64,000 bases of DNA from contig CP070837.1 of the NCBI GenBank assembly GCA_020341815.1, forward strand, positions 1,172,575-1,236,574, given 5' to 3'. Positions within the stretch are counted from its first letter, which is position 1. Each line of letters opens with the position of its first letter. Of the stretch, positions 6,001-30,000 are shown one piece after another. Both the position numbers and the translations under genes were made by a program. This stretch comes from Candidatus Omnitrophota bacterium. Its GTDB lineage: Bacteria > Omnitrophota > Gorgyraeia > JAFGHF01. The notes beneath the pieces were generated by a model, which worked only from the letters and a program-made list of their open reading frames with translations, ran no database searches and was not told where the DNA came from.

Positions 6001-9000
6001 GAAAGATTTAAATGCAGAGGATTATGATTTGACAGCTGTTATAGGACAATTAGAACAACTATTATCAGTTGTTGGGACATATTCTCAAGGGGATGTTGTA
6101 AAGACACTTATTAACATATTGAATTTTGTATTTTTCGATAAAGGAAAGAATGCCGCGGCCGATAAAGCATATATTATCCTTAAGGATTATATCGAAGACT
6201 TTGGTAAAGGGGAAGTTTTTGAGCCTCAAATAGGAATGCTTTTTGATAAGGCTGTATGGGGAAAAATGGAGTGTGTTTATGCCTCAGAATCGGCTAAACA
6301 AGGGAGAAAAGAGGGCAAGATTTCATTAATAGGAGAAGTTGTCAGCTTAGGCTTCTTGATTATGAGAGAGATTAGGAATGCAAAAGGAAAACTTATAAAA
6401 GTCAAGCAAGTTGCTATTGTTCCGGCAAAAGTCAAATGTGTATCTTCCGAAGAATTAAAGCAGCCCGAGAAAAAGGATAGCAAAGAAAAATCCGAATTTA
6501 AATTCACAGCTAATAATAAAGAAGACAATATCCCCTTCCCAGCTAAAAGAAAATCAGGGGAAGCCTCAGGAGATGCTCAAACAGACAAAACATCCGAGCC
6601 CGAGGAAGAGGAAAAATCCGATACATCAGAACCAGAGGAAAAGCTTCCAGATAAGGAAGGCAGCACAGATAAGCCAAACGAAGAAATAGAGAATAAGCCA
6701 TCCGAAGACAAAATAGAGAATGCTGAAGAAGAAAAGGGAACCTCAGAAGATCCTCAAACAGACAAAAAATCCGAGAATAAGGAAGAAAAGGGAACTGCCG
6801 GAACCGATACATCAAAATTAAAGATTTCCAAAGCAGATAGAACTGAAAAGGAATGGAATGAGCTTGCAAAGCGCAAGGGCCTTTCGATTAGTTTATTCGA
6901 TTCAAATGGAGATAGGCCCGAGGAAGAGAAAGAATCCGATACAGCAGAACCAGAGGAAGAGCTTTCAGGCAAGGGAGATAGTACAGATAAAGTCGATCAG
7001 CCAGAACAAAAAATAGAGAAAGAGCTTTCAGGCAAAGAAGGCAGTGAAGAAATAGCATCCGAAGGCGAAGAAGAGGATGCTAAAGAAGAAAAGAGAGCCT
7101 CGGAAGATCCTCAAGCAGACAAAAAAACCGAATTTAAATTCACAATTAATGAGATAAAACCCTTCTCCTTCCTACCTAAAGAAGAATCAGATAATAAGCC
7201 AGGTGAAGAGAAATCCGAAGAAGGGGACTCAAAAGAACAGCTCCAAGACAAAGAAGAAAAGCCATCAGCAGAAATAACTAAAGACTTGAAAGAACAAAAT
7301 GGCAGGAAAGATATTATAAAGCAAGGCAATAAAAAACGAGTAAAAAAGAAACAAAAGAAAACTTCTTCTAAAACTTGGAAGAAAATAATAATTATTCTAG
7401 CCCTTATCCCAGCAATAATTATAGGTTTTGTTCAATACATTGCCTTAGAAGCCCCAGCTTCAATCGTTAATCCTTTAAATAAAAGAATCGAAGTTGGGAT
7501 AGAAAAACCGAACTTACCTATGTCTAGGCGCTTTTTAACAGCGGTAGATGATAAGGAAGAAAATGACCCTCTCGATAATGATATAGAGGACCTTTTTGGC
7601 CAGGAAGAACAAAATCTGATAGTTCGGCCTTTATCCCGGGAATTAAATCCCAATAACCTTTTAGCCTTTACCGAATCGCAATTTAATAAATCTCATAGCC
7701 CGAAGGTTATACAGATTGGAAAGAAGATAAAGGTAGCAGGATTGCACGATATACCCGGGGGAGATTACTATGAGGCATTGGAATATGGATTTGAGATGGA
7801 CGGTAGATATGTATTATTTAATGGTGAAATTCACCGTATTGTAGGCGATGATATTTATAATGACGGTAGGCTTGTAGGTAGTATTAGCGAAGACTATCTT
7901 TCCGATGGAGAACTTAATAATACAGCAATTCCAGACATAGTCGGGCTAACTGACCTTGAGGGGTCGATATTAGAAAAATTAATAAAGGATGATAAGATTT
8001 CTATTGTTTTTGCAGTCGGCCGTGACGACAGCATATATTCTTCTATTGTTGATGACGATATGATTATTAGAGGTCCGAAACCGGACTTTGAAGATTATCA
8101 AGATATAGTTATAATCAATGGCAGGCCGATAGAAGTAAAAATAAGATTAGTTTTTTCCATAACGGCTTTCTTGGATAGTTTGAATAAATTTGAAGTTATA
8201 TATGTTTTCTCTCATTCCCGATGCGGCTTAGGATTCCATTTTTATAATGATAAACATCCTGTATATATGAATCGGGGCAGAAAAATAAATAGTCAACAAA
8301 AGGTAATCGGAATAAAAAGCAATAGTATATATCTGGAAAGCTATCTTAAGCATGGTATCATCTCAAAGGATAGAATCGTAGGAAAAACAGAGAACGGATA
8401 TACTCTAATTAGCGTAAACGATTCAGATTTAACTAAAGTTGTTCCTTACAAGGGCTATCAGCTTATAATAGCAGATTCCTGTAAAAGCAGGAAACACTTC
8501 TTAGATGATTTGAAACGTTTGAGAAAAGGCTTGCCCACCAGCTTCATTCTGAGCCAAGACGATAGTCAGGCCACGGGCAATTTTGATCAGGTTGTAGGAA
8601 TTATTTTTACAGGAGGAGACGTCGATACATTAGTAAACCAGATTAATTATAGAGAAGGCAAAGAGATATGGGATTATTATGAAATAGAAGAGACTATGGA
8701 TGTTAGTGATGGCAAGAGTGACCGGGGTAGGGCTTCTTCCGCCGCCTCGGAACCTGTCCCGGTTACTGCCATTTTCCCTAACTCCACTATCGAAGATACA
8801 TACGGCTCAGTGGTTGTGGTGAAAGGAGATTCAGTGCCGCTGAATGACCAGCCCAATAGAGATTTAGCCTCTTCACCTGCAACAGAGGCAGTTGCGGATA
8901 AGGTGCAACCGCAGGAAGAGATTCTGAGGGTTTCTGCTGAAGATAGAACAGAGTTTGATGCATTAAAGGCATATTACCGTGCTTTAGTTGAGGCAAGAGA

Positions 9001-12000
9001 ACAGGCTGAAACGGATGCAGGTGCCTGGGAGACGATAAGCGATATAGCATATAATATCTATTATAACCTGGTTGTCAAATGGAGAGATAATACGAATAAT
9101 AGAACCTTACATGTAGTCGGTAAAAGCTTAGATCATGGCTTCTTAAGAGAAATAGAATTGAGAAATAGAACATCAGGAGTAGTTAGCAAGTATGATGTTT
9201 ATACTCGTAGAGCTAAGGCTTTAAAGAATCCTGCTTCTGAAGAAGAGCTTAATTCACATCTGAAAGAGCTGCGGGATAACACAGACCAGCTTATAACGTC
9301 TATGGTTTTAGTAATTGACTATTTAAGCCAGGATTATCTGCCAGCAAAGAATCAAACCGCAGAGCCCACGGATAAAAATAAGCTATTAGGGATGTATGGT
9401 AAAAAGGACACAGGGCTTTTGTTAAACCTACCTAAGATAGAGGAATCTTTAATTGCAGCAAGGGCATCTTCACCCGGAGCTAATCAGGAAGATTCAATTA
9501 CAGAAGCTTTGGCAAATAACGATTTTGATCCAGAATATCTTAACACGCTGTCTTTGCAAGAAAAAGAAGATATTTTAGCCAGAATGCAGAAATTCACCGC
9601 TCCGTTAAATGATCTTATTACCGATTTAGAAAATGAAAAGAAACAGCCCGAAGGATTGCTTAAGCAGCTTAAAAAATTAATTAAGAATTTCAGTAGCCCT
9701 GCCTTTGTTGTCGTTGAGCCGTTATTCGATTCTGTTGGTTCCATACTTGTAATGAGGGTTTCCTCCTCTCCGGCAACAGTGTCTCATGTGGAAGAGAGCG
9801 GAGGACAAGATAGCAACATAAATCCTATTACAGATGAACTTGAGAAACACATAAGGAACATAGTGGAAAAGATTAGAAAGGGAGAGTTGCCAAATTTAGA
9901 GGTAAAAGTCTCTAGCGAAGAAAGCGGAGGGCGTTCCTCTTCTCCGGTTAAAGGCCAGGAAAGATTGACAACAATGTTGATTAACTGGACAAAGGCAATG
10001 ATTCTTAGCCTATTCATAAAGGCGAAGCTGCGCAAGCTATTGTTAGACAGAGAGGCTCAAGGCAAGTTAAACCTTAGAAGTTTAATAATTAAATGGGGGG
10101 CGGGGATCCGCTGGTACATAGACAGGCTGAAAAAATCCACTGCGGGACCAAGAGGCAAGACCGGAGTAATACTTGTAATAGACAAAGAAAGACCAGGCCG
10201 ATTAAAAGATTTTAACAAAGGGGATATATTTGCAGGACAACTGAGCCTGCCGGTAGTGGTATTTTGTGCGCAGGCCTATGCAGAATACCTTAAGAAGACA
10301 GGGCTGGGAGCGTTTGTAAGCGGGGATAACCGCTTTTATTCCAAAGAATATGCGGATATGTTCAGCCGCGTATTGATAGGAAACGGCATAACCGTATATA
10401 GAGATAAGTACTTGCAAACCACACCAACGCCGGTAATATCCTATATGGCATTTTATTTTGAAGATGTAGACACAGGAGTGAGTGTAACAGCCAGCCATAA
10501 CCCGCCGGACCAAAACGCAATAAAGTCAGCTAACCGGGATGGAGGGGTGGACACGGATGAAAAGTCAGAGCAAATAGCAAATATAGCGAATGATATGTAC
10601 GCCCATCCCGATGACTATGCATTATATATTGGGGATGCTCGAAAGGCCAAAGAAGAGGATGCCTTAGAGATTTATTATGATAACTATATTAAAAAAGTTT
10701 TTGGCACTAAGTTTGCCCAGACATTGTCTAAAGCCCATAGGCAAAAAGGAAGCGAGTTTATTATAGATGGCTTGGGAGGAGTGGCCGGACGAGCAGCCGC
10801 ATACTATTTGAATCGGCTGTTTAATGGTAATAGCTGGAAAGACATTGTCACAGTATTAAATGCGAAAGCAGACCCGACAATGTTAGGGATACACAGGCCA
10901 GACCCCTCAAACCCCAAGACATTGGAGTATTCAGGAGTATTAGAGACATTGGCAGGGAATCCGAGCATATTGATGTCCGTGACAGCAGATATGGATGCAG
11001 ACCGCACGGGGCCGGCAGTAATTATACCGGAAAAAGATGTAGTCAAGGCAATGACGTTCGGCTTATTCGTGACTGAGATGAATTTCGAAGGCAAAAAGGT
11101 GCACATAGTGCGCTTTACGCCGAACCAGATATTCACCCTGTTGGCATACGAGAGGATATTGCAGGCCTTTGAGAAGTTAATAGGGACCAGGGATGTAGAT
11201 GAGATACTGCAGGCTATAAAAGATAAGAGAGTAGACCCCTCCAAGATACATGTAGTGATGTCACTGCCCACAACGAGGCTGATGTATGCATTGTGCAGAT
11301 TGTTTGGGGTAACCCTGCATTATACGGCAGTAGGATTTAAGAATTGCGGCAAGGTAGCGAAAAAGATAGAAGATGAAGACCCCGAAGCAATAGTGATAAT
11401 ATTAGCCGAAGAGAGTGGAGGAGCGATAATCGGTCCGTTAGAGCGGGGTGAAAAAGGAGAAGGCATACATAAAGATAAAGATACATTGGTGCTTGCATTT
11501 GGATTATTTGAGACAGCAGCCCGCTTAGCCTTAGAAGATAGCAGTATGCTTGAGTTCTATATAGAAATGGCCAGCCGATTGGGAGGGCTGTTCTATTATG
11601 CGCGAGTAGATGCTTACTTGCCGACACAGGAAAAGGCCGAAGAGATTAAGGATCCCCGGATAATACAAGAGGCAGCAGAAGCAAAACAGAGAGCGATAGG
11701 CGCCTTTATGGAATTAGAGAATAGTAACGAAAAACTAATTAATACTTTTGGTAAGGAAGATCTCCAATATGAAGAGGAAGAATTTACGGTACCCAATACC
11801 TTAATATTTATAAAGGAGGAGAATGAGTGGGTGCTGTTAGAGCCTCGAGGCAGAAGGCTCAAGTTTAGCGATAAGACCTCCTTGGAGATATTCCACTTGA
11901 CCGAAGGTGCAGGCGGCGGCCCTGTAATTACACTTTATGATACCGAAGGAAGGCTGCTCTACTGGACATTAATCAGGCCTTCGGGGACAGAGTCATTAAT

Positions 12001-15000
12001 CAGAGTATATTTAGAGATATTCGAGCCCTTTGATAACCCGCAGCCAAGTCATCTATACAGTTATTATGCATTCCTGTTTGAGACATTGTATTTAAACGTA
12101 TATTGCCCGGAAGAAGACGGCCCAAGCTACTGGGACTTGCACGTTGATGATGTAGAACAGAGGTATTGTTCCTCCCCCGTAGCGAAAATCAAGGCGCTAA
12201 AGAAGAAAGGCCAGGAGGACGGTACGCAGAAGGTGAAAGTAAGCAGAAAAGTAACCAAAGACTCTAACCGAAAAGAAGAACCTTTGGAAGAATGGTATAA
12301 GGTTCTAGGTATATTAGGAGGTAATATTAAAAAGGGCAATAACAAGGTTTCCTCTCCGGCAGAAGCTAGAGAATACCATGAGAAAGCTGCAAAGCTTTTT
12401 AAAGAAAGAAAATTCGATGAGACCATAAAAGTCCTTACTAAGATTATTAAGCTTAATTCAAGCGATTCAATTGCTCATCACAATCGTGGAATAGCTCGCG
12501 AGAGAAAAGGCGATTTAAAGGGAGCGTTGGAAGACTTAAGAAAAGCCTGGAACATTAAAGCAACTGCGCTTAAGATGAAGAAATCCTCTTCTCCCGCAAA
12601 TGGAGAAAAACTTAATCCAACAGACATAAGGGCGGAACTCATAAATAGCACAGTGGTGTTCTTAACCAGCCGAAAATGGACAATGATGAGAAAGGGAGAT
12701 GAAGTAGTTATACGCAAATTGTCTGAGAAGCGCTTTGGAGAATTATATGCGCGTCATCCAAAAGGTATTCGAGACGCAGGCATATTCGTAAATTATGCTT
12801 GGCAAGATGAAGGACCGGGAGCGTTCAATATAGATATAGTAGAAACATTAGATCCTATAGCACTACTTTTGGCCTTTAAAGGAAGCCTTAAAGATGAGGC
12901 CGAAATCGAATTAGTAACTGCAAAGATTGAAAAAATTAAGGATGGCTTCAATAAGGTGAAGCTCTCCAGCCCGGCAGAAAATCGGTCTATGGAATTAATG
13001 ACTAACATTGTCTCTGTAGGCGCAGTGATTGTAATTGGGGCTAAGCCTCAATCAGTTTCCAGTCCTGTGTTTAAGATGTTTGCAAAAAGAGATGATAAAG
13101 ACATTGGAGCAGATGCTGTTAATAAGAAGACTTATAAGCAAACTGATGAAGGAAAGTTTAAAGTTGTAACTTTGCCTTTGGAACAAAAGAAGTGTGAAGG
13201 AGGAGGTTGTCCAGAAAACCATGGCGCACAGAATAGCGAAGTCGAGTTGCTTAAAAAGGCTATCGATACGCTGATAGACTTTAGGCTTGAGTTGCTACTT
13301 TCCGAGCCAAAAACAAAAACTGAATGTCGGCAGAAAATAGATGCAATGACGAGAGATTTAGAAGAGCAGTTTGGAAATCCCACAAAAGCTAAAGAGTTTG
13401 CAGAAAAAACAATTATGAAACAGGAAAGAGAGAGGCTTTTGCCTATAGCAGAGAAAAAGATATATTGGAAAATAAGAAATAGATTAATGGAGAAATTAGA
13501 TAAAAAGAACGGAACTATTGACAAAGATGATTGTTTAAACATATTACAAGGAATTGTTAATCAAAAAACAAAAATATTGGCTGAAAAGCAATTTAGAGGT
13601 GCACTTCTTCTGGGAGAAATAGGAACGGGAATCCAAGAATTAATAGGGCTTTTAGTTGTCGATGAAGCATTAAGGAGCGTATTCTTCAAGATGCTTCCGG
13701 AAGAAATCAAAAAGCAAGTTGAATTTGAAAAAGAACAAAAAGCACAACAGCCAGCAAATGGGCAGGGTTTAGGTGGGGTAGAGGTAAGAGATATGCTAAA
13801 AACGTTTGCAAAAAAATTGGAAGAGAACTTAGCGCAGAAATTTGACAAAAGATTAGGGCATCTGGAAGAAGAAGTGAAAAACGGAACCAATGACGTTGCG
13901 GAATTAAAACAAGAAGTGAAAAACGGAACCAATGACGTTGCGGAATTAAAACAAGAAGTGAAAAACGGAACCAATGACGTTGCGGAATTAAAACAAGAAG
14001 TAAGAAACGGCAAGCCGTATTGGGATGAGGGATCGGATAGGAAGCTTATTGATGATGAGATGAAGAAATTAAAAGAGGAGGACCCCGTCCGCTGGGCCGA
14101 CCCTCATAAACGGCAGGCAGAAGCAACTAAAAGACTTATAAAACAAGGAAAGCTCAGGCTTGAGAATTGTTTTGATAATACTATCCCCAATGATACATTA
14201 AGAAGAGAAGTAAAGCAAGCAATAAAAATGAAAAAAGAAGAGAAAGAAGACATAGGCGAAGAACTGACTTGGTATGATGTTGAGAAAATTTATAATGAAC
14301 TTTTATTAGAATTACTTATGGATGAGAAGATAGAAAAAGAAGATGCTAAAAAATTAGGGCCTTTGACGGCTTATGAACTTACTTTGGGAGAACTTGAAAA
14401 AACCATTCGTTTCCAGAAGAAAGATATGCCACATTTTGGAATTCTTTGTCCTACAAAAGATGGTGGAAATCATTTTGTTAATATTTTGGGAGTTAGAATA
14501 GATGAAAAGAGAAGGGTTTATATAACAATTTCAGAGTATAATACCGGTGACGATGAAACGTGTCGTATAAGGGAAATTGAACTCTCAGAATTTGCCAAAG
14601 AATTAGGAATGGATAAGTTTATTATAATTGCCAATAAGAAGGATAAAAGGATATTCAGGAAGGAACTTCGCGATGACGACAAAAAAGAGCTAATGAGACC
14701 CCATGGGCCTGGAACCAAGACCACCGGTCCCCAAGGCAGCAAAACAGGCAACGGAACAGGTGATGGAACAGGCGGTGGTAGTGGTAAAGGAACGTCTGGT
14801 CAGGGCAAAGGTGATGCCACCCCGCCTCCTTCAAACGGTTTCGGAACATCCGGAGCCGCAGCAGGCTTTACAGGTGCTGCTGCAGGTTCTTCGGATGCCG
14901 GGACGGATGCTGGCAACACAGGCGATGTTGACAATACAGGCGATGCGGGCAGCACAGGCCGTGATTTTCCAAAAGACGTTACTAATAGCAGTAAGCCAAT

Positions 15001-18000
15001 AAATACCATTCCATTCGATACCGATACCCATCAGGGAAGGGCCGATGCGGATAATAATAACCCAGGCGCAGAAGTAAATGGTAATAAGGGAACGTCAAAT
15101 ACAGAATTGGCAAAAGCTGTAGTTGCCAGCCCGGTTGAGCAGACTTTAGGTGGAAAAAGGGACGTAGAAACAGATAGATTTTTTGCTACTAGAGAAAAAT
15201 TTAGGGGTAGATCAGAAGGCTTATCTCCGCCTACTGCTTCAAATAGCACTTTAGAGCACAGAGCCAAATCCTCAATATCCGCCAGTCCCGCAAGATTAGT
15301 TTATCCCCTAAGGCCTCGCCATGAGGCAGATAATCTACAGTCCGCAGTTCACGGAACAAAAATAACCGCCCATATCCCCAATACGCACTACACAATATAC
15401 GATATTGCCTCCAGCCCGAGTATTATTGACCTTAATGAGGAAGTCCAAAAGTTCTTAAAAGAAGCCGTTAAAGATTTCATGGCTAAAGTAAGGGAAATTT
15501 TGGCTAAGAAAGAGGATATCCAATCCACAATTGATAAAATCAATGCACTCACAATAGAAGGAGAGTTCATTGATCAGATCTCTACAGAGTTATTAAGGAA
15601 ATCATTGGCTGATGAGTTAACAGATTTACTTAATGGACTGCAGTCATGCGGACTAAATATCCAGAGCGGAAAAATACCTCTTGAAAAATTACTTTCTAAT
15701 TTGGATGAATTTGCAAATGTAGAAAAACTATATATAGAAACCACAGGCTATATTAGTATACTTAATTCAGTTGCCATTTTAAGAAAGAGTCGTTCTTTTT
15801 CCAGTCCTGCCGAATGCAGCCCTGTTTTAACTCAGCAAGCTACTTTTTCACAGTTTTTGGCCAATCTGCTGAATAGAGAATCGGCTGATATTTCTCAAGC
15901 AATAAAGCGTTCGCTTTATAACTTCAGATGCAGATGCGAAAAATACATATTGCAAAGAGCGATAGATTGGTTTTTGAGTCTCAAGTATAAGCTATTATCT
16001 CTATTAGGAATTTTAGGAAATAAGAAAAAGCATTACGGAGATAGCGGGAAAGAAGCCGATAATGAAATAAATGCACTTGAAGCAAAAGGTATAGATCTCA
16101 GAAACCCGCGGGCTCCTTCAATGAAGCGTTCGCTTTATAACTTCAGATGCAGATGCGAAAAATATATTCTGCAAAGAACGATAGATTGGCTTTTAAGCCT
16201 CAAGCACAAGATACTATCTTTATTGGCAAATTTAGGAAATAAAGAAAAATATTATGGAGACAGCAGCAGAGAGCAGACCGACAAGAAAGTAAATATACTC
16301 AAAATAAAAGGCATAATAAAAAGAGTTTTCGGAGCACCGCGCGCTCCTTCCGATCCGCAGAAGCTCAATAATACTAATAATCTTGGCACCATAGGTGCAA
16401 ACGCTAGCGGTCTGCCTGTTTTGCCAAACAGCACCTCTATGCCCTTTACTGATCCATTTGAAGGCAGAGAACCGGCGAATATTCCTCCAATAGCAGGAGC
16501 TTCGGCCAATATAGAATATAGAAGGAATGAACAGAAATTAGTAATAGTTAGTAGCCCTGCAACAGCCGAAGGCCACCATAACGGTAAAATGAGAGGATGG
16601 CGGGTCTATAGGGAGGGTATCTTAGAATTAAATATAAATATACGTAAAGCAAGAGGTATAGGTACAAGTCTCGGAGGTCCGCAGGCTCCTCCTTATAGCT
16701 CTCCTATCTCAGTAAACCAGAGAGAGAATAAGGAGGTGTCTTATGGAAAGAGTACAGCGTTTGGAATTACGGGAATTCGAGAGAAAGATGCGGAATATAG
16801 AAGAAGAATGGATGGCCCTGGAACTTCAACGTCGGCGCAAAGCCAGGAAGGAGAAGGAAAACATTATCCAGGAAGAGGACCGTTAGAAACATTACCACCG
16901 ACAGAAGAAAAGGGCAATAATAATCCTAATGGCCGCATGGCCCGGGGCTCAAGCGGAAAGAGTCCGGCTGCTATAGATGATGCTCTGTGCATACAAGCTT
17001 TAACTAAGCTTGCCTCTATATTAGAAGCTATCCTCAATGCTGTTATGCAGGTGCGGTATATTGTATACCGCGGACCTCCGCAAGCTATCTCTACCTATTC
17101 CCCTACCTACTACCTACTACCTACTACCTACTTATTAATTAGCCCCATAGCTACAACTTCATTAGAAGAAGTTGCGGTTATGGGTTTTGTTATTTCCGGT
17201 TATTCCTCCCCAATAATCGTCGCCGCAGTAGTTGCGGTGCGTTTATATACATTATTCAATAATCTATTGCAAATGGTGGCGCTGACAGTAGCAAGCCTCA
17301 TTGTGAGGCTTACTTCTATCACCGCCGCCTCGGTGGGAGAACCTGTGGGCGCCGCCATTGCAATTAAACCAGTAGTGAAAGGAGATGGGTTACAATGTCA
17401 GGAGCCGAAGTCAGGAGTATCAAGTTTGATCACATCGTGGATTCGCCAGATTACAGGTTTGTATGCGTTACTATTGGCGGCAGGACACGAAATCTGCGAA
17501 TCTATAAAGACGGGATGGTTGAATCTTATGAGCACGGACGCTTTATCCAGCTTCCTAGCGAACTGGCAAAAGATATTCGTGCCACTCTCAGCCGTACGCC
17601 GAACATCCCTACCTTCTCACTCAAGAACGGAAAAGGCCTTAGCGAATAAGTTACTCGCTGAGGCCTTCTCTGCCTCCTCCCCGGCAGATGGTGAAGATAA
17701 ACCTAAAGTGAATCTTCCAAAAGAAGTGCTTGAATATTATGAGAGCCTTTCTGAACCAACAGAAGCAGCTTTAATCTCAGCTTGGAAAAACCGGGGAGGT
17801 AAGTTCGTACAAAGTAAAGACGTACATAAAGCTCTTACCGAAAGCAGCATGAGACCGAAAATAACAGAACCCCCACTTAAGAAACAAGAAGATGAGAAGC
17901 AAGAAGATGAGAAACAAGAAGAGGGGGTAATAGAAAAAATAAAAAAAGAGCTCATAATAAGCATAAGATGTTTTGCTATAGAAAGGATAGAAGTAGAAGA

Positions 18001-21000
18001 CCTTCTTAAAGATAAAGAAAAACAGCTCAAGAAAATAGGGGTTCTAAAGCGTTTATTAATAATGTTGCGTACTGATATAGGCAAAGAAATAAAACTACAA
18101 AAAAATGAGACTATCAAAAATATATTAGAAACTATAGGGGATTATATACAAGTTATATTAGATAATGAATTTAATTTAATAAAAGAAGGATTAGAACAAG
18201 CGGGAATAATAAAAGCTGGATTGCGGCTTGAAATGGGGACAAAAGATGAACAAACCAAGAAGAAAAAAGCAAAGCAAGAATTAAAAGCAATAGCGCTTAA
18301 TATAGCAGAGCAAAAAGCAAATTTAGTAACAAAAAATATACCGTTGATAGGGCAAGCGCTAATAGAGCTAGAGCAGGCCATAAAAGGACAAAACTCTACC
18401 TCCAGCCCTGCGCATTATAATATACCGCTTGTGCAGCATTCCTCTAGAAGAGAGCCTGGGAAAGTATCAACCACACTCACTAAGCAACAGCTTAGAAAAA
18501 TAAAAGAATTGAGAAAGACGGCATCCCTCGACAAGCAAAAAAAGATTCAACGATTGATGACTAAGCATTGCAATAAAGGTGACACAACAGACGCGAAAAA
18601 ATTTATTACACAGATGAAAATCACAATATCCAAACCGGATATCACCTCCAGCCCCGCACAGAAAAAGCCCGAAGAGCAAAAGATAGATATAGAACGCATT
18701 ATAGAATTAGTTAAAGAAGTAAGGCTAGGAGAATGCTTGGAGCATTCGGCAATATTAATTGGCGTATTGAGAAGATTAGGGGAAAACGCCCGGCTTGTAG
18801 GCGGTTATGAATCCTCCGAAGCTAATCTTCCCGACCACTATTATGTTCTTAGGGAAAATGGGGACAGGATAGATATCTGGCCAAGAGAGACAGAAGAAGA
18901 AAACTTTGATGAGTTTTTCGCTGAGGCACAGTTACGACTCGCTTTAGATAATCCAAAAATAGATGATGTGATTAACAAAGTCTTAAAGAAGCTCTCCAGC
19001 CCCATCGATAAAACAATAGATAGTCAAGTTATTGCATTTTTAGGCGCCCATTTATGGAACAATATTATGGCTTTGCTCAAAGCCCGGCCGAAATTCCTTG
19101 AGGATTTCTGCTTTAGTTATCGTTGTCATGAGGGCTGGGTGCCAGGGAAAAAAGGCGAAAATATCTGCGGCGCTATTAGGATGGTAACTATAAATTCTGC
19201 TGCTTATCTCCCTATCAATAAAGAAGCCAGCATTGTTCGACCTTCCTCCAGCCCGGTTAAGCAGAAACTTGGAGCTATTGTCTTGATTATTATGGGGATT
19301 ATGGTTGGTTTTCCGGGATTGCTTTTTGCTCAAGGATTAGCTCCTGCTGCATTAACCGCATCAATCTTTGGCAAGGCTATTATGGGGACAATAGGGGTTG
19401 TCTTGGCAGGAAAGCTCCTCAAGAACTTATATGTAGCGCGAAAGTATAAAAAATATACATCCAGGATAAATAAGCTTTTGAGGATAAGCGAAGAAAGCCC
19501 AGAGCGATTTGCCGATGAAATCGAATCGCCCGAATACAGAGATATCTATGAGCAGGTTATGCGTTATTCCGAAGATAACGCAGAACAGAATGAGACGTTA
19601 GCGCAACTACAGGAGTCTTATTTTGAAGCCAGGGAGAAGACCGTTGAGGAAATAGAGGAATTGCTGATGGCTTTTACTTTTCCTCAGCCTTCTTTAGAAA
19701 TGTGGCGGTTGAGTCTAAAAATTGAAATTATGCCAGGTTTTTCTAATAAGAAAGAGGGAAATACACGGGATGAGCTTTTAGAAAAACTTTCTGGCTTTGC
19801 CAATAGATATCCGGATATTTTCCTAAGTGTATTAGAGGAGAAGTTCGGCATAGAACTCCTAAGAGGTAATTTTAAATCAGGCGATTATATGCAAAGATTG
19901 CAAGAGCTTTATTTCAATATTAGAAACAGGGCTTATGTTTCTGCAAAGAATAAGCCTGTGCGTATTGCCTGGCATGTTTGGGATTTTTGCATCTCCTGGA
20001 CGTTGCGTTCCGGATTGGCTTTAGCGAAAGGAATTAGTTCCCGGATTCAAAAACTATCTGACGGAAAGCCAACAATAATTATAAAAACGCTCATAAAAGG
20101 ATTAGGCGATATAATTCAAAGAGCTAAAAATCTCTTTGCCGAAGCGCAGGCAGAAGAAGGTTATTGGAAAAAAGCAGAACTTGTCGTTAAGCTTAGTTTT
20201 TGTATTTCTTCTCTTGCTGCTGTTGCCTGGTATAACTGGGGCTGGAAAGGCGCCTTAATCACTGCAGTTGGCTTGCCTATAGGTTTCCCTGCAGCACTAA
20301 TAATGGCTATATTTGTTAGCGTTAAGATAATTCGATGGGCATGCAATCATCCAAAGCTGGCAACCACTGGAGTACTTTTGGTTATGGTGGGGGGACTTGG
20401 TTTATTCGGGGAGGCATTTGCAACGCATCCTCAGGCTTATCTGCCCCATCCGGATGGTCCGCAGGCATCCAGGAGTAGAGCGGGCAATATAGGAGACAGG
20501 ATTGCGCTTAGGGGGCCGGATGAGGCTGGCGAGGTTGTCCCCAGAGTTGTTGAGCCGACTGTAAAAGGCCAAGATCCGGAACGCTCCGGCCGTTCTCCCC
20601 CAGATAACACAACTACTCATTCAGATATATCACTTAACCCTAGTCAAACCCCTGCCGAGGAAACGTCTTGGCTCAGCAAAATCTTGGATGTTTTGGTGCC
20701 TGATGTTGAGGCAACTGAGCCTGAGGTGAATAAAGGGGCAGAGAAAACAAGCTTCTTTAAAGATTTCTTTAATAAGAAATACGATGTTATAAAATTGTTT
20801 AGGAATATATATATTGGCGATTGGCATCATTTTGGGATTTTTAGACTTGTGGGAAAGCAAGAGTACGTTAAAGATGGTAAGAAGGCTTATATTATAATGC
20901 TGCGAAAGATAATAGGGAAGATGCCGCCAATAGGCGGGTTCCATATATCCGGTAATACTTCAGAAGCGATTATTTTCGTCAATCAGAAACCAGATAAAGA

Positions 21001-24000
21001 CTGTGCTTGCGAAATGAAAGCTATGGCAAGCGGAGATCGCTTGAAGATACTCTTGGAAATAATGGATGATTTTCATCGCGAGGCATTAACGGGTAAAGGT
21101 ACATATTGTAAATTTACTTCAGAAGGCGAAATTCACTGGACAGAAATAGATGAATTTACTAAGGTCGATCCTATTTTGATGAATAATTTAAAAGCTCTAG
21201 CGCTAGATCTACAAGGTAAGCCTTTCGCCAAGCGTGAACTTATATATACAATAGAGGGAATGATTAAATCAACAGCTGATGATTACGAATTTACAAAACC
21301 ATTGGCCGGAAAGAGCGTCGAAGAATTGATCAAGTTAATAGAAGGAAATAAAAGTAAGCATGAGTTTAGACATATAATAGACGCATGGATTAGTGATTCT
21401 GAATTGTATCTTACAGAAAGAATAGAAGAATTGAGAAACTCTTTTGGCAATAGGTCAGATGAAATTATAAAAAGAGTTATAGTAGAATTGTCCGGTTTTT
21501 TGAGCACACTGATGGATCCTTCATATACGCGTTATCAATTCTGTCAAACATTCTTAGGAGCAATGCATTGCAGGAACATAAGTCAGCGCAATTCTAATAA
21601 TGGCTCTCATTATAGCGTCAGCCCCAATGATGCCGCTCATTTTATCATCATCTTGGCAATGATGAATTGGGCTAAAGGAGAAAAAGATATTACCGGTAGA
21701 TATTTCAACGTGAATGATTGGAGAGAGACATTACGTCCTTTAAGTGATGAGCAAATAATACAATACGCTAAAGAGATTTATGAGTATATATTCCAAAGAG
21801 AAATGCTCATGCCCGAGCTTGTAACAACATATGAAGCTAAAGGTATGTGCTTCATCACCTCACTGGGTAGTGCAGAGGCGGCTGAAGCGCAGACACCGGA
21901 TGAAACAAAGCCACCTATTAAAGAATGGATGATAGAACTATATCGAGAAAAACTCCAAGAGTTAAGAGACAAATTTAATAAGAAAAAGATTTCAAAAGAT
22001 GAATTTATTTCCAGACAATTAGGTATAATTTTAAAACTAGCTAATGAAATAAGATTTGAACGAAAGGTTGCGCAGAAACAGCAGGATTGGTGCTTTAGAA
22101 CAAAGTTAGATTTGCGGATATTAGGAGAGCAAATAGGATTTAGAGTTTTTAAATATTTAATCATTTTAGATAAGAATTCTGATGGGACATTGTCAGTTTT
22201 CCCGATAGATAAAATATTCGATTTAGTAGAAGAATTTACGAAAACAGAAATTGCTATATACAGATCTTACGAAAAAGCGAAACTCGCTAACTACAGATCT
22301 TACGAAAAAGCGAAACTTGCTAACTACAGATCTTACGAAAGAGCGAAACTTGCTAACTACAGATCTTACGAAAAAGCAAAGTTGGAGATTTATAAGGAAA
22401 TAGAATACAGTCAAATTTATAAAGACAGAATAGCTACTATAGAAATAGTTTATAGAAAAAAAATAAAAGCTGTAGAAGTTACTTATAGAGAAGGAATAAA
22501 GGCTGCAGAGGCCACTTATAGAAAAGGAATAAAAGATGCAATTGCAGCTTATGACAATGCAAAAGAGACAGTGCTTCAAGAAATTACTAATAAAGCAAAG
22601 CAGTTTATTATTAAAGCTAAACAGTCAAATAACGAGGCAATGCTGATTCAAAGAGGACAACCCTGGGGAATTGGCCTAAGCGGATTGGTATTATTAACTA
22701 TATTATTTATGCCAATGATGGCCTTTGGAGGAGAAACTGAGGTATCCTCATCACCAATTAAGGCTAAATTCAACATGGCGGAGGTTGTCAAATGTGCAAC
22801 TCTGCTAAAAACAACCAAGGCTAATTTTATAAGAGTATTAGCAGTTGGGTTGGGGTTAAGTCAGATTGGATGGGTTTGGATTAAGTCTGAAGAAAAATCG
22901 ATAATACAATTCTTTTTGAAACCCCTTTTAGGGGGATTGGGAATAACGATAGTCTTTTTAGTAGGCTATTATCTGGCAACAATTTATTTTTCTAATCAAT
23001 GTGAGAACTATCTTGAAAAAGCAAATACTTTTATTATGTCAAAACAGCATCAGAAGGCAATTTTGGAATGTAACTACGTTATTAAATTAAAAAGATTTAT
23101 TCATTCAAATCTTGAGGGATTAGCATATAGCCTTAGAGGAAGAGCATATTTTGAATTGGGGCAGTATCAAGAGGCTTTGCTTGATTACGATACAGCTTTA
23201 AGACTTATTGTTGATGTTCCCGAGCTTGCTTGTTTTGTTCCATCTCTCTATGTTAGTAAAGGTAGCACACTTTTTCATTTAGGAAAATTGCAAGAAGCTT
23301 TAGATAGTTGCGAGCATGCAATTGAATTTGATCCCAATTTGGGCCCGGCATATGTAAATAGAGGAACAGTAAAGGCTTCTTTGGGAAATATTGAAGAAGC
23401 AAAGAGAGATTTTGAAAAGGCAGTAAGACTAGATTCTAAATTACAGCAGGAAGTAGAAAAAACAAAGAATTATTTAAGAGGTAAGGGTATAGATATTTCT
23501 TCTTCACCGGTTAAGATAACCGACTCAATGAGTACCTATGCGGTGAGTCAGATTTTGATGGGATATAGGCTTGTTGAAATAAATCCGCAGAACATTCAAT
23601 ACATTAGCAATATCACCTCTTCCGGTTTAATCCGCGGGTCGGATACTGCGGAAGTAGATAGCATTAAAACCTCCCAAATATCCAACCTTCCGTATCCTGC
23701 CCGCAAATATTCTGTAATTCCAGTAAATGAAGTAATAAAGGAAAAGAGTTGTTCTTCTCCGCTTACACAAGATAGTAAAAATAGCGGTAAATTTGCTCTT
23801 TGGCGCGAGTCTATTGAGAATTATATTGAGAGCTACTTAGATTTTCACCCCACCTTATCAAAATATTTAGGCAAAGTTATTCCTTTTATAGAAGTAGCGC
23901 TTTTGGCAACATTAGTCGGGTTAATGGGAGTAGCTTTATTAGGAGGAGCTTATTTATCCTGGATAGTTACAACAGCCCTGCTGGGAGGTAAAGCAGTAGC

Positions 24001-27000
24001 CATTGTAGGAAGTATATGGATGAGCGCAAGCTTAGCATTAGTATCATTTGGAGCAGGATCATTAATCTTTTATAAGACAAAATGGAAGTGGTGGATGCTT
24101 GGTATGTTAGCGGGTTTGGTTGTGGGAAGCGTAGGGGCGTTATGCACACCGTATATAATCGCGTCTGTAACCACACCAAGCATAGGCTTAATTGTGGAAA
24201 CCATAGTAGGAACAATAGGCTTAGCAATATGTTGCAGGACAGAGCGGGGTAAGAAAATTTCTCAGTGCTTGGAGCCTACTATAGATTCCATATCTAAAAC
24301 TGAAGAGATAAGAAAAATAATAAAAAAGATAACGAAAAATAGTACGATAGACCAGATTAAAAATGATTTAGAAAAGGGTAAAATTGGTGTGCAAGAAGCA
24401 TGTTATAGAGTTTTAGCCTTAGCAGAATCAGCGCTTAAAAAAACAGATCCTGATAAAAAATTTAAAAAATTCAATACTCTTCAAGTAGAAGCCTTTGATT
24501 TGTTAATTACTGAGATTGCAAAAGCCAAAAGTGATTCTAAAAAGATTTCCCGAGAAATGATTGAGATGGTGATGTCTACCGGCAAAACTGAAGCTGCAGG
24601 GGTGTTTGGTTGTTTAGCCTGGACGCTGAAAGATAAGTTTGGTTACGAGAAGGTAATACTGACCAGTTGGCAGAAGACAGCAGTAAAACAGGATTACGAT
24701 AGATTAAATACTTTCTTTAAGGAAATTGGACTTTCTTGCGGCTTCCATAACGAAGAGCATTTATCAGAAGATGAATTTGAGAAATATTATAATAAAGATA
24801 TTCTTTTTGTTGATTATCAACTTCTGATGAATGATTGGGCACAGAGTAGAGCGTCAAACAGAGGGAGAAAGAATCAATCGGTCTTAATTAAACCGGGAGA
24901 AAAGAAAGAAGCAGGAACAGGAGAAAAGCCAGAGAAAGAACTTATTATTGCTCCAGAAAAGATTGCCCTTGTAGGTTTAGAAGCCGATTTCTACTTCCTT
25001 GACGACTTGTTTACACCCTTAGTAATATTGGGACAGCCTAAAGAGATTAACGAAAAAGACTTGGCCCAGTTTCGGGAAAATTATAAAAAGATAATAAAAG
25101 CTGTTTCTATGAGTAAAGAACTTGAAAAGCATAAGGACTTCAAAATATATGAATCGGAAACATATAAAGAAGTTGAAGGAGATTATCGCAATGGAGATAA
25201 TCAACTACGACATACTACGCATTTTGTTGAACTTACTGAGGAAGGCAAAAGGAAAGTAGGAAAACAATACATTGTCTTAACAGAGACATATCTTAAAGCC
25301 TATTTCCTTTATAACGGCAAGGATTACACTATTAGAAATGGATTGATTAGACTCTACAATGAACCAGCAGGTGTTATCTTTGAAAACAGACAGCTTCAAG
25401 ACCAAACTATTTGGATTATGCTTCATATAAAGGCAGGATTATTACCCGAAAACGAAGGAGATGTATTTGAGGACAGGTATTTAAAAATTATTTCCCATTT
25501 GTTTGCATTCCCTATCGTCTATACTAATTTTTATTTATTCCAGAAGGAATTAGGCCTTATTTGGGCATTGAGTGGAACTTCTGATAAAGAGGCATTTGAG
25601 AATTTAGGATTTAATGTTGTTAAAGTGGATAGCAGAGACTTTGAAGAGCAAAGAAGTAAAAAAGTTGAACAAAGAGACTTTCTCTCGAAGAATTTTGCTG
25701 CCAGCATAAAGACTATTTTAGATAAGTTGCAAAAGCTGATAGAGAAGCTTAAAAACCAATCCACAATTATCTTTGTTGACGACCCCGACGATGTTAAAAA
25801 GTTAGCTGAAAGAATTAAAACAGAATTTAAATGGCCAAAGGATAAAGTAGAGGCATGGTTACCTGATGATGAGATTGATGAAGCCAAAAGACACAAGGTA
25901 GGTTTGCCTGGACAAATAACTATTATCACGGCTAATTTGACGCGTAATGCAAACTTTAAGTTGCAAGAAGGGTCAACAAAATTCAATTACCTTATTTCAG
26001 GAGGTCGTAAAAATCCTCGTTGGATGAGACAGCTTCTCTGGCGAGTGGGAAGACTCGTAGAGATGAAATATGATGAAAATGGCAAAGAAACATATGTCTT
26101 TAATGAAGCAGATGTGTTTGTGTTTTATCATCTGGAGCAGGAGCTATTCTCACAATACCCGAGAATAAAGGAGAATCTCTCGGCTCTGTTAGATGGGAAA
26201 GACTGCATATCTGTAAATATAGATAGCCTCAGCAATAATGAAAGAAAAGCTGCTAGGTATATTCAAGAAGCTTTCCGTTTTACAAATAGTGACTCTATAA
26301 AGAATAGCAAGATGCAAGGTAAAATAGAAGAACAGATAGGTGCAGTAAGCGAAGCAATTGCAAGGCAGATGAAAGAAATAACTAATGCTCAAGAGAGAAA
26401 GGATCTTCAATCAGCCTATACAGTTTTTCTAGAGACTATTGAGGAACAGAGAGGTCTTATTTCCTTTATAAAAGGAGATATAGATAGGCTTGCTGCCCAA
26501 TGGTCTAAGAAAGTAAAAGAGATATTTGATACTACAATAGGAGCAGTTCTTGCAGGAGAGGGTTTAGTTATAGAAAGTGATAATAGAGAAGAGGAAGAAG
26601 AGGTTGATTCATCAGAAAGAGGAAAGATAGGAAATGTGTGGCGGGAAGTTATCGATAAATTAAGTCGTAGAAATAGAGAAGGTTCTGGGCTTGGTCCTGC
26701 ATTGGCAACTATAACTATGACAACAGTTATAGGTGTGGGTATAGTAGCGCAGGCGGCTGCCGCGCAGCATACTATGACGGCTCTTAAAGAAAGACACTCC
26801 ATGTTATTAAATCGGATAACAGAGGACCTGCGCAGTATAGGAATTCTCCAGAGAGAAAAGGAGGAGGCCAATGACAAGCGCGCGGAAGAGATAGATGAAG
26901 AGATAAAGGGATTATATAAGCGATTAGGGGTAATTTCGGAACAAGCGCAGGAAGTAGAGCACAAAATTAAAGTAAGAGAGGCTTATAGCTCTGCTAAGAA

Positions 27001-30000
27001 ACATAGCGGAGACATTGAAAATGTATTGTCAGATGAGCGGGTAAGCGCGAAGAGAAAAGATATTTTGGCGACTCTTGAAGCAGAGGGGTTATCTTTAGAT
27101 GAGTTAGAGGAATTACAGGCTAAGATTAACGGCCGCAACGAAGCCGAGGCAGAGTTACTAAAGGGCATAACGGATGCGGAAAAGAAAACCGAGCTTGAAT
27201 ACCTTATCAGCCAGAGAAATGCGCAGGAACAGAGCCTGCTAAAGCTTTACAGAGAGGATGCTGATGCAAGAATAGAAGATATCGGGCAGAGCGCAAACGA
27301 GGCAGATATAGCCATTGTTGGTGAGTTGAAAAATCGCTCAAAGAAATTTAAGGTTATAAACGACAGAAAATATAGCCTCTGGTCTTCAAAGGAGAAAAAA
27401 TTAAAGCAGCAGGAGACTAAGCCTGTAAAATTGTCTTCTTATAAAGGAAGAGATGAGGCGAGAAAGATTTTAGGTGCGAGGTTTGGGCAATTAGGAATAA
27501 CAGCTCAGGAAAAGGCTGAGTTCAAACTCCGCATTGAGAACGAAAAGCGCGCGGAGCGTAAAAAGTGGCTTAAAAATAGATTAGCAAAGGAGGAAAAGGA
27601 AGAGAAAGACAAGTTCCTTAAAGGACTTAAGATTTTCCGCAAGCACAATAATATAAAAGAGACCCGTGAAGATGTGTTTACCGAAGATGATTGGAAAGCG
27701 GCTATCAAAAAGGCCCAAGACAGGCTTGGATTGAAGATAGAGAAATTAGAGTCAGAAGGGGAAATATCAAGATTAGAGGAGCAAATAGAGGCAGAAAGAG
27801 AAAAGAAAGATATTGATAGGGATAAGATAAATGAATTAAAAGATAAGATTAAGGAACATAAAGAGGATATTAAAAAGATACAGAATAAAATCAGCGAAGA
27901 AGCTAAGGCAATTAGAGAACTCAGGAAAGAGTTTGCGGATACCGAAGAAGAGAAAAAGTTAATAGATGAACAGACGCGTCTTGATGATGAGGAAAAGGAA
28001 TACAATGAGAAGCGGGAGCAGATTTTAGAAGAAATAGAGGAATTGGAGCGAAGAGAAGAAGATATAGCTCAGCTTCCTCCAGAGGAGCAGAAAGAATTAA
28101 AATATGAGGCGCAGGCCTTATTTACGGAAATAAAAGAACTTATTCAGCAAAAAGAAAGACTTGATAACGATATAGAGACTTTAAAAGAGAGAAAAAGGAC
28201 TATTATCCAGGGTAAAGAGAATCACCGGGAGCAGATAGAGGAGTTAAGAAACCTTCAAGGGTGGCGCTTGCGGGCCCTATGGCAGGAACTTAAGGAACTG
28301 CGGAATGATTATCCTGAAGAGGCGGTTCGGGCCTTAGCAGATTATTATGGAGCATTGCAGGGAGTGCCGTATAAGAAAAGAATAAAGGCGGCTATCCAGC
28401 TGTTTAATCAGATTAAAGGCATTGACAGCAAAGGGCTAAGCGATGCCACAATAGGTGCATTGATTGAAGAATCAAAGGCTGACTTCCAGCGGGAAGATGC
28501 CCTTACTCTCAAGCGCTATCAGTTAGGCCGGGAGAAGGACGAGCAGAAGAAAGAGCAATTAAGGAAGGAAATAGCTGAATTAGAGCAGAGAGAATTAGAC
28601 AGGAAGACCAAGATAGAGAAGGCTGCCGAGAAGTTTGCCAGAAGAAGAGGGTATAAAAAAGACAGAAAGGATGAGTTTGTAAGCAGATATGAAGATTTAA
28701 TAAGTCAGTTAGAATGGATTAGGGAATATGTAGCGATAGAAAAAGGACGCTATGGCGTTGAGAGTAAGGAATACAAAGAGCTTGATTATATATCAAGGAT
28801 ATTGCCCGAATGTATAGACTTTGCAGAAACGCAATTGGAAAAGACGGAGGCGGAAAAGAGTTTAGCCGTCTTAAAAGAAATGGTAAATGACCCGAAAATT
28901 AGCAGGGAAGTTAGAGAAGGACGAAAGAGCAAAATAAAGAGCTTAGAAAATAGAATCGCATTCTTAAATAAGAGCATAGGAAGAAGTAACTTAGCAGAAG
29001 AGTTAAAAGATTCTCAAGTTCATATTTTAAAAGCAGTTAAAAGCGTAAACGGCTCTTTATATGCAAAGATAAAAGAGCTTTTGGATAATTATCCTAGGTT
29101 AAGGAAGCTTAAGGTCTTAGGCAAAGAGCGGGAATTAGAGCGCACTCAACAAGTGAAAGAGAATATTGAAGATGAGATTTCTCAAGAGGGGGAAAAGATA
29201 CATAACTACTTTATCTCTAAGGAATTAAACAGAGGCGATAAAGATGAAGAGGCCGATAAAGTCTGGAAGCTGCTCGAAGAGTTGAATAAAGGTTATTTAC
29301 TTACAGAAACCAACGAATATCCGGGCGTATTTAACTTAGTGCTTTCTCTGGGAGTGAAGAACTTCCAGAAGGATGTTGGTTTGCCGGTTACAGGGAATTG
29401 GGATAAGACCACTAACGAAAAAGCGCAACAGTTATTAAAAGAAAAAATTGCCGCAAGAGTTTCCTTCTTAAAGAATAAGGAGCTGCCTAGACGTATTCTG
29501 AAAGCAGAGATAGATGCTCAGAAGAAGAAATCCGATAAGACGCTCGCAGAGCTTGAGGAGCTCACAGCTAAGCAGAATGAGTTATCCAAGCTGGAAGCAG
29601 AGATTATACAGGAAGAAGAGGCCCGGCAGAAGGAAAAATTAGAGAAAGAATTGGCCTTACTCAAACCTCAGGCAGGTGTATTAGAAGAGGTAGATAAGAG
29701 GATTAAGGCAATAGAGGAGAGCTTGGCGGTTAAAGAGATAGAGATAAAGATTGCCGAGTTAAAAGCAAAGCAGGCTCAAGCAGAAGCTAAAGACCCACAT
29801 TTAAAGCGAGAAATAGAATTACAGGAAGGCAGAAAGAGGCACTTGGAAGAGGAATTCAGGCTGGCCAAAGAAGAAGAAAAAGACAGGAAGGTAATGCTTA
29901 ATGCAAGGCAGCAGAAACAGCTTTATATAGACCGCAATGAATGGAATATTAAGAAGAAGGTTTTGGATGCCTTTGAGCAGTCTCAAACGGAAACCTTAGC

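Follow-up and report, generated by a model that had tools for sequence, protein, structure and literature searches.

Giant multi-enzyme open reading frames (ORFs) have been described in Omnitrophota (West-Roberts et al. 2023 preprint; 10.64898/2026.06.07.730766), and those of such design have been tied to predation in this phylum (bioRxiv 10.1101/2023.11.21.568195). The cleavage points of these giant proteins are stated as unknown in the latter work, and C39 or S8 peptidases were proposed as their processing enzymes in the 2023 and 2026 giant-gene preprints. The word ‘transglutaminase’ is absent from the text of both preprints (10.1101/2023.11.21.568195; 10.64898/2026.06.07.730766), ‘SSP’ is absent from that of 2023 (the 2026 preprint was not searched for this term), and ‘cleav’, ‘linker’ and ‘processing’ are absent from that of 2026. 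Transglutaminase (TGase)-type domains are an established class among the toxin domains, where they are known as Tox-TGase (PMC3482391). In papain-like cores in general, the Cys stands at the N-terminus of a helix, strand beta-2 bears the His and strand beta-3 bears a polar residue (PMC10318531). Here we describe a small, probably TGase-like module embedded in a giant ORF of a Candidatus Omnitrophota bacterium, where it exactly fills the space separating two copies of a recurrent Ser-Ser-Pro tripeptide (S-S-P, hereafter SSP). The DNA analysed, referred to as the window, is a stretch of 64,000 nucleotides (nt) of contig CP070837.1 (assembly GCA_020341815.1, positions 1,172,575 to 1,236,574 of the forward strand).

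Frame 2 of the + strand lacks any stop codon across nt 2–64000, that is for 21,333 codons with both ends open, and the remaining five frames hold 718–1,915 stops each in a six-frame count of the 64-kb window. The giant polypeptide claimed in an initial annotation of this DNA is thus real and, the frame being open at both window ends, the actual gene must exceed the 64 kb analysed. The peptide quoted in the same annotation as a Cys-His-Asp peptidase core, GECLEHSAILIGVLRRLGENARLVGGY...DHYYVLRENGDRIDIWP, was indeed found in this stop-free frame at nt 18728–18889 (+ strand), with its G-E-C beginning at nt 18728, corresponding to amino acid (aa) 6243 in the window-frame numbering used throughout. 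It belongs to a module of 113 aa (aa 6219–6331; nt 18656..18994, + strand), which was delimited by BLASTP alignment to six relatives, by a stand-alone relative (P0006) and by AlphaFold2 (AF2) prediction. Similarity to all six relatives is restricted to aa 6217–6333 in BLASTP, and residues 7–119 of P0006, a complete stand-alone protein of 125 aa, align to aa 6219–6331. The homology of the relatives begins directly after an upstream SSP (aa 6216–6218; nt 18647..18655, + strand; ‘...DIT-SSP-AQKK’) and stops directly before a downstream one (aa 6332–6334; nt 18995..19003, + strand; ‘...KKL-SSP-IDKT’). The module is therefore a self-contained cassette exactly spanning the interval between two SSP motifs. 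No second copy of it was detected within the giant ORF of the window, and the possibility that neighbouring modules travel with the cassette was rejected, only aa 6217–6333 being common to any relative.

The relatives were retrieved by a HMMER scan of 1.84 billion protein representatives, which gave nine matches. Six are true relatives (P0002, P0003, P0005, P0006, P0008 and P0009); P0001, P0004 and P0007 were discarded as repeat proteins whose scores had been summed across short or multiple stretches. A word-indexed homologue search with aa 6200–6420 returned nothing, nor did locus searches with the module in genome_contigs and metagenome_contigs, and no member of the family had a match in PHROGs or PADLOC. 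The family is very rare and is captured by neither Pfam nor NCBIfam. In the seven-sequence family alignment (window module plus six relatives, hereafter A1) the relatives are 30–37% identical to the window module, and three polar residues stand out. The candidate nucleophile, Cys27 of the module (aa 6245; nt 18734..18736, + strand), lies in the G-E-C at the N-terminus of a predicted helix (residues 27–40), is invariant (7/7) and was aligned by both hhalign and Pfam to the catalytic Cys column of TGases. The candidate general base, His61 (aa 6279; nt 18836..18838, + strand), opens the predicted strand 61–66 within D-H-Y-Y-V and is conserved in six of the seven sequences. The candidate third residue of the triad, Asp73 (aa 6291; nt 18872..18874, + strand), is found at the end of a short predicted strand (71–72/73) within R-I-D-I-W-P and is again conserved in 7/7. 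The G-x-C at a helix N-terminus, as initially annotated, agrees with both AF2 models, in which the helix begins at residue 27; by contrast, the ‘D-[IP]-W motif’ does not hold as a family feature, as the Trp following the Asp is not conserved in the relatives.

Several independent comparisons place the module near the TGases. In Pfam, its top match is Transglut_core (PF01841), with 20.8–21.2 bits and E-values of 3.7e-4 to 4.7e-4 (0.0064 when the module was scored within a 5,000-aa chunk), in an alignment restricted to profile positions 49–84 of 108, i.e. the helix of the Cys and the strand after it; the same family was matched individually by 3/7 family members at E<=1. PF01841, PF24656 and PF13471 were the only families at E<=10 for the module or family members, with no C39 or other peptidase family among these matches, and PF13471 (Transglut_core3/lasso-peptide B) reached 11.6–11.7 bits against a cut-off of 26 (E 0.24–0.27). 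In PDB, the closest sequence match, located on the stretch already aligned by Pfam, is to 6g49, the TgpA transglutaminase (E 0.018), and the non-significant matches obtained by tblastn against plasmids land on the Cys-helix segment as well (query 21–51), both of the annotated ones among the 20 listed being ‘transglutaminase family protein’ genes. When A1 was compared by hhalign with A2, an independent alignment in which seven TgpA-type cores were collected from plasmids of bacteria and archaea, a probability of 86.2% was obtained (E 4.9e-6, score 37.9, 57 columns), to be set against a score of 11.0 +/- 2.4 (maximum 21.4) for 200 column shuffles of A2 and of 10.6 for the reversed alignment. Moreover, searching the whole 21,333-aa giant protein with the profile hidden Markov model (HMM) of A2 gave the module as the sole match (18.7 bits; next chunk 1.5 bits). 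The family motif L-R-x-L-G-E-x-A-x-L-x-G parallels the L-R-x-x-G-I-P-A-R-x-V-x-G of TGases; in the relaxed hhalign alignment the Asp is offset by two columns, and by eye its W-G-x-I-D context in the relatives resembles the W-V-x-V-D of TGases. At the sequence level, the resemblance to TGases appears to be beyond chance but weak for any single sequence.

AF2 was run without templates, from the single sequence or with A1, an input made of family members only and holding no TGases. A predicted local distance difference test score (pLDDT) of 73.7 was obtained from the single sequence, rising to 84.4 with A1, together with a predicted template-modelling score (pTM) of 0.80. Both models show a helix at residues 12–21, a helix at 27–40 starting from Cys27, a strand at 45–51, a strand at 61–66 starting from His61, a short strand ending at Asp73, a strand at 85–88 and two C-terminal helices. 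The predicted order of the Cys, His and Asp elements agrees with the papain-like core layout (PMC10318531), with the family-conserved His61 (6/7) on strand 2 and Asp73 (7/7) after strand 3.

Regarding the genomic context of the relatives, P0009 is one of three tandem paralogues (locus L002, 1418–4736), all composed of an N-terminal hydrophobic segment, a TIGR03696 RHS-associated core (64–67 bits vs a cut-off of 32.5) and a differing C-terminal domain. In P0009 (TIGR03696 64 bits) this C-terminal domain behind the RHS core, the warhead position of polymorphic toxins, is the TGase-like module. Another RHS-core paralogue follows downstream of P0009, and the array ends with a 118-aa ORF without Pfam or NCBIfam match. 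The locus is a compact polymorphic-toxin-type array in which one warhead is the TGase-like module. P0003 and P0008 are proteins of ~190–200 aa with an N-terminal Lys-rich and then hydrophobic, signal-like segment. P0006 comes from a Riflemargulisbacteria metagenome-assembled genome (MAG), with an Imm5-like gene 2.3 kb away on the opposite strand. In P0005 the module lies within a 4,765-aa multi-module protein (locus L003, 10001–24298), which includes HATPase-like, glycosyltransferase-9, sigma-70 region 2 and other segments and is punctuated by recurrent linkers of its own (APPAEPA four times, NRGDRLE[LF]AAG three times and TYPKTPPDQGGGVVSDS twice). No SSP was found in P0005, and its own linkers give the impression of another ‘junction grammar’, distinct from SSP, in this large protein of many modules. 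The gene of P0002 (locus L015, 160–537) has an in-frame TGA that is Trp in the database reading, so that its source organism probably has a recoded genetic code (table 4 or 25).

Our favoured reading, to which we assign a probability of roughly 0.45, is that the module is a minimal TGase-like (papain-fold) cysteine enzyme, namely an effector-type cassette that would modify or cleave proteins; fold class, catalysis, substrate and cellular side of action are what we infer, starting from the observed sequence, family, conservation, predicted secondary-structure order, junction positions and contexts of the relatives. The effector role is favoured in view of the toxin-type or secreted contexts in which the relatives occur; these contexts are free of SSP motifs and point to an effector at least as strongly as SSP points to autoprocessing. 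The standing of Tox-TGase as a toxin class and the link of such giant ORFs to predation also speak for this role. The module is probably catalytically competent. In the mechanism that we propose, Asp73 would orient His61, which lies one strand before it and after the core helix, and this His would activate Cys27 at the N-terminal end of that helix. The resulting thiolate would attack the carbonyl of a protein substrate, either of a peptide bond or of a Gln side-chain amide, to give a thioester. Resolution of the latter by water would make the enzyme a protease or a deamidase, and resolution by an amine a transglutaminase. Such an effector would have its analogues in the ‘Tox-TGase’ domains that polymorphic toxins carry, and would itself be present as a gene-sized cassette of the giant protein, in which cassettes would be joined by S-S-P-[A/V/I] junctions.

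A number of results count against this reading. Transglut_core, even if the top match, stays under its gathering score of 23; the His and Asp strands fall outside both the Pfam alignment and the confident hhalign region; and no TGase came up when the sequences of PDB were searched with the A1 family profile (E<=10). Foldseek gave no significant neighbour in PDB for either AF2 model (best E 0.65 and 0.8) and none in BFVD. Nevertheless, among the best 50 of the weak PDB matches of the better model there are about nine distinct TGase-, NAT- or papain-type Cys-His-Asp enzymes (8osv, 4dmo, 4nv7/8, 4guz, 4xa9, 2zk9, 3isr, 3kd4 and 9f5t), including NATs and GdmF, RavJ, protein-glutaminase, the TGase-like putative proteases 3isr/3kd4 and a Josephin. 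P0006 carries a Gln at the position of His61. No immunity-like partner was identified adjoining P0009 or interleaved in its array. The window module, at aa 6219–6331 of more than 21,333, lies in the middle of the ORF and not at the C-terminus as toxin warheads do. Finally, it is flanked by transmembrane (TM)-like pairs, upstream at aa 5726–5744 and 5755–5773 (nt 17177..17320, + strand) and downstream at aa 6419–6437 and 6450–6468 (nt 19256..19405, + strand), the outer flanks of the downstream pair being Lys/Arg-rich; TM-like segments were called here by Kyte-Doolittle hydropathy (19-residue window, score >=1.7), a crude predictor rather than a topology model. By a crude positive-inside argument the module may lie on the cytoplasmic side, the same as the phosphoglucomutase/phosphomannomutase (PGM/PMM)-like enzyme described below, a placement that may be less suited to an effector, except if the module were released and exported. 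Taken together, the initial assignment to the TGase-like superfamily is partly supported by the concordant results of Pfam, TgpA, hhalign, conservation and AF2 order, each of them being weak and Pfam sub-threshold, and the proposed papain-like fold is matched by the predicted order of elements but by no significant structural neighbour.

The motif that bounds the module recurs along the giant ORF. SSP is its most enriched tripeptide, with 35 copies observed vs 2.8 expected (12.5-fold), so that the ‘recurrent SSSP elements’ of the initial annotation are not an artefact, and the residue that follows is Ala (14), Ile (8) or Val (7) in 29/35 cases. Its codons are variable (24 different 9-mers among the 35 sites), which argues for a motif acting at the peptide level, and a DNA- or RNA-level signal was rejected on the same ground. 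It was also excluded that SSP precedes signal-peptide-like hydrophobic segments, which was observed at 5/35 sites vs a random mean of 4.3 (P = 0.43). The sites are restricted to the TM-rich parts of the ORF (aa 876–7918 and 18394–21170) and border, in addition to the TGase-like module, both blocks of TPRs. Examples of the junction peptides are ...KPDITSSPAQKKP..., ...VLKKLSSPIDKTI... and ...EQRYCSSPVAKIK.... A longer stretch, S-S-P-x-T-S-S-S-P-V-T-S-L-E, is duplicated with near-identical DNA (‘...acctccagcagccctgttacttcattagag’) at nt 62369–62410 and 63491–63530 (+ strand; aa ~20790–20803 and 21164–21177), ~1.1 kb apart, and this near-identity suggests a recent internal duplication of a junction and the start of a module.

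A PGM/PMM-like module (aa 3316–4056; nt 9947..12169, + strand; PGM_PMM_I 80.3 bits) served as a control for the junctions. It is located between an SSP at aa 3313 and another at aa 4057 (nt 9938–9946 and 12170–12178, + strand), and its stand-alone homologues of ~710 aa end at window aa 4055, two or three residues before their own C-termini (713/715, 785/788 and 718/720). As homologue termini coincide with SSP for both the PGM-like and the TGase-like modules, SSP marks junctions between gene-sized modules. This PGM-like module represents a distinct ~710-aa family, for which only PGM_PMM_I scores strongly, with stand-alone members in Margulisiibacteriota and Armatimonadota MAGs; its nearest relative (P0010, 54% identity) is fused behind an N-terminal domain via a ‘TTSPI’ linker. 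Searching genome_contigs with the PGM-like region retrieved nothing. On the other hand, a search with the PGM-like module (A3) recovered two giant ORFs, L019 and L028, each stop-free over 22 kb and having nothing in common with the window except this module. SSP is 17-fold enriched in both (17 vs 0.99 expected in L019, 27 vs 1.56 in L028), the residue after it being V, A, I or L. In L019 it flanks the PGM-like module at 3309 and 4035, where ‘GNYCSSSPV’ compares with ‘QRYCSSPV’ of the window. The 11 non-giant PGM-like genes hold 0–1 SSP each. S-S-P-aliphatic thus appears to be a conserved junction motif between gene-sized cassettes in such giant ORFs, and may possibly be a cleavage site or a hinge.

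Since SSP behaves as a module junction, the idea of autoprocessing, put forward in the initial annotation next to a possible crosslinking or cleavage of envelope proteins, stays alive: the module would be an embedded cysteine protease that cuts, in cis or in trans, a giant polyprotein at S-S-P-[A/V/I], releasing gene-sized products including itself. The enrichment of the motif at the peptide level with its following A/I/V, the exact bracketing of the TGase-like module, the bracketing of the PGM-like module at the ends of its stand-alone homologues, the position of SSP at the borders of both TPR blocks, and its abundance in L019/L028 as compared with its rarity in the non-giant PGM-like genes are all in favour of this explanation. 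Furthermore, the module is the sole protease-like domain detected by Pfam in the 21,333 aa, P0005 likewise carries it in a multi-module protein with recurrent linkers, small site-specific TGase-like proteases such as lasso-peptide B proteins and LapG exist, published work gives the cleavage points of such giant proteins as unknown (bioRxiv 10.1101/2023.11.21.568195), and placement on the same side as the PGM-like enzyme, itself deduced from charge, would favour it slightly. However, cleavage beside Pro is unusual for papain-like enzymes. SSP may instead serve as a hinge or as a site of modification. The 22-kb pieces of L019 and L028 yielded no relative of the module, P0005 is devoid of SSP, and for four of the relatives, being small or of toxin type, there is no polyprotein to be processed. 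Moreover, the published proposals prefer C39 or S8 peptidases, possibly encoded beyond the window (bioRxiv 10.1101/2023.11.21.568195). Autoprocessing, the main rival, is less favoured because the module family and SSP do not visibly co-occur elsewhere, and we regard it as unlikely. The wider proposal, that the giant ORF is a cellular polyprotein with S-S-P-[A/V/I/L] cleavage sites and that the TGase-like cassette is the protease, or one of the proteases, that liberate its products, seems to us more improbable still, even though a recurrent junction motif is present, as the 35 SSP, the homologue termini and the retention of the motif in L019 and L028 indicate.

Two further explanations concern the nature of the module itself. 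It might be an unrelated small alpha/beta domain that resembles the Cys helix of TGases by convergence or chance, with a Cys having a structural, redox or metal-binding role. The resembling stretch would be G-x-C...L-R-x-L-G...A-R-x-V-G-G-Y, the Pfam score is below cut-off, the family profile loses TgpA in PDB, all PDB Foldseek E-values are >=0.65, and an hhalign probability of 86%, with a confident region of 57 columns only, leaves room for a false positive. Still, the same superfamily and segment emerge from four independent searches, the shuffle controls remain far under the observed hhalign score, and each of the three conserved polar residues lies exactly on an element that bears the papain-like triad. 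This explanation is, in our opinion, a doubtful one. Alternatively, the module could be a catalytically inert TGase-like domain serving peptide binding or scaffolding, given that RHS toxins are known to include TGase domains without activity (PMC3482391). The absence of the His from one relative would be in accordance with this, as would the unusually small size (34 vs 44 residues between Cys and His, and 12 vs 16 between His and Asp, when compared with TgpA cores). Nonetheless, all triad positions are intact in the window copy, Cys and Asp are invariant although the relatives are merely 30–37% identical, and the documented inactive domains are N-terminal, beside a signal peptide (PMC3482391), whereas the RHS-linked copy of P0009 is C-terminal. 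An inert module is considered very unlikely, and the reading as a TGase-like, effector-type enzyme is retained.

Pfam scans of all pieces of the giant ORF (nt 2..64000, + strand; characterised by six-frame stop count, Pfam and hydropathy scans) identified a methyltransferase (aa 485–600), PGM/PMM domains (aa 3413–4005), TPRs (aa 7708–7813 and 20664–20743), a weak match to PG_binding_1 (aa 9764–9805), a weak GH2-like piece (aa 12874–12951) and a NUDIX-like piece (aa 20927–20960), all on the + strand. About 47 hydrophobic TM-like segments were found by the hydropathy scan, clustered at aa 1703–8915 and 18213–20451. Directly downstream of the TGase-like module lies an SSP-bounded cassette of 81 aa (aa 6335–6415; nt 19004–19246, + strand) with a Cys/His cluster, F-C-F-S-Y-R-C-H-E-G-W...E-N-I-C-G, for which metal binding is possible; it has no Pfam match and is common to no relative of the TGase-like module. 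From aa 7919 to 18393 (nt 23756–55180), i.e. over ~10,500 aa, there is not a single SSP and there are almost no Pfam matches beyond the weak PG_binding_1 and GH2-like ones, and the last strong hydrophobic segment is at aa 8897–8915, with none thereafter until aa 18213. This part presumably forms one continuous non-modular region, possibly extracellular.

Whether bacterial giant proteins of 20,000–150,000 residues work as single chains or as cut pieces is an open question, for which this locus offers two handles: a candidate cassette for thiol proteolysis or protein modification, in which the conserved set of Cys, His and Asp is intact, and an S-S-P-aliphatic junction motif that predicts exact neo-N-termini, checkable in existing metaproteomes. 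The fold class and its chemistry are known; what is new is that the family is very rare and below the Pfam threshold, that its size is minimal (113 aa) and that, within a giant ORF, it is found as a cassette bounded by junctions. A mini-family of TGase-like enzymes without previous annotation is thereby defined, and its RHS-linked occurrence widens the repertoire of papain-fold effectors. Should the improbable polyprotein proposal turn out to be true, the module would be a bacterial counterpart of the papain-like polyprotein proteases of RNA viruses.

When compared with described systems, the window conforms to the giant multi-enzyme ORFs of Omnitrophota (West-Roberts et al. 2023 preprint; 10.64898/2026.06.07.730766): it shares an ORF of well over 20 kb, many TM segments, scattered sugar-metabolism, methyltransferase and NUDIX domains, glycoside hydrolase, PGM/PMM and TPR content, and long unannotated stretches. 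With TgpA-type proteins (PF01841; P. aeruginosa TgpA, 6g49) the module has in common the G-x-C at the helix start, followed by L-R-x-x-G-x-x-A-R-x-V-x-G-Y, and the succession of a His strand and an Asp strand. It differs from them in having 113 aa only, with Cys–His and His–Asp spacings shorter by 10 and 4 residues, respectively, in lacking the H-x-W-x-E-V and D-P-T signatures, and in being embedded in a giant ORF, TgpA being a membrane protein of ~670 aa. As for the Tox-TGase and papain-like toxins (Zhang et al. 2012, PMC3482391), the likeness comes from P0009, which carries the module as a variable C-terminus behind an RHS core, in a tandem array of paralogues with different C-termini; the window copy, on the contrary, is internal to a giant ORF, with no cognate immunity gene seen.

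The papain-like proteases of viral polyproteins (coronavirus PLpro, potyvirus HC-Pro) are likewise small Cys-His(-Asp) modules inside a very long polypeptide, and the gene-sized units of the window ORF are likewise separated by a short recurrent junction motif; however, the window gene is cellular (bacterial-type), its junction motif includes a Pro, there is no sequence relationship, and cleavage is hypothetical. LapG/BTLCP and the lasso-peptide B proteins (McjB-type, PF13471) are TGase-like Cys-His-Asp proteases devoted to site-specific processing, the substrate of LapG being a giant adhesin, cut at Ala-Ala, and the lasso-peptide B2 proteases being similarly small. The module has no significant match to either, and the recognition sites differ. 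Moreover, LapG and lasso-peptide B are separate proteins, whereas the module of the window is a cassette carried within what would, on the autoprocessing reading, be its own substrate.

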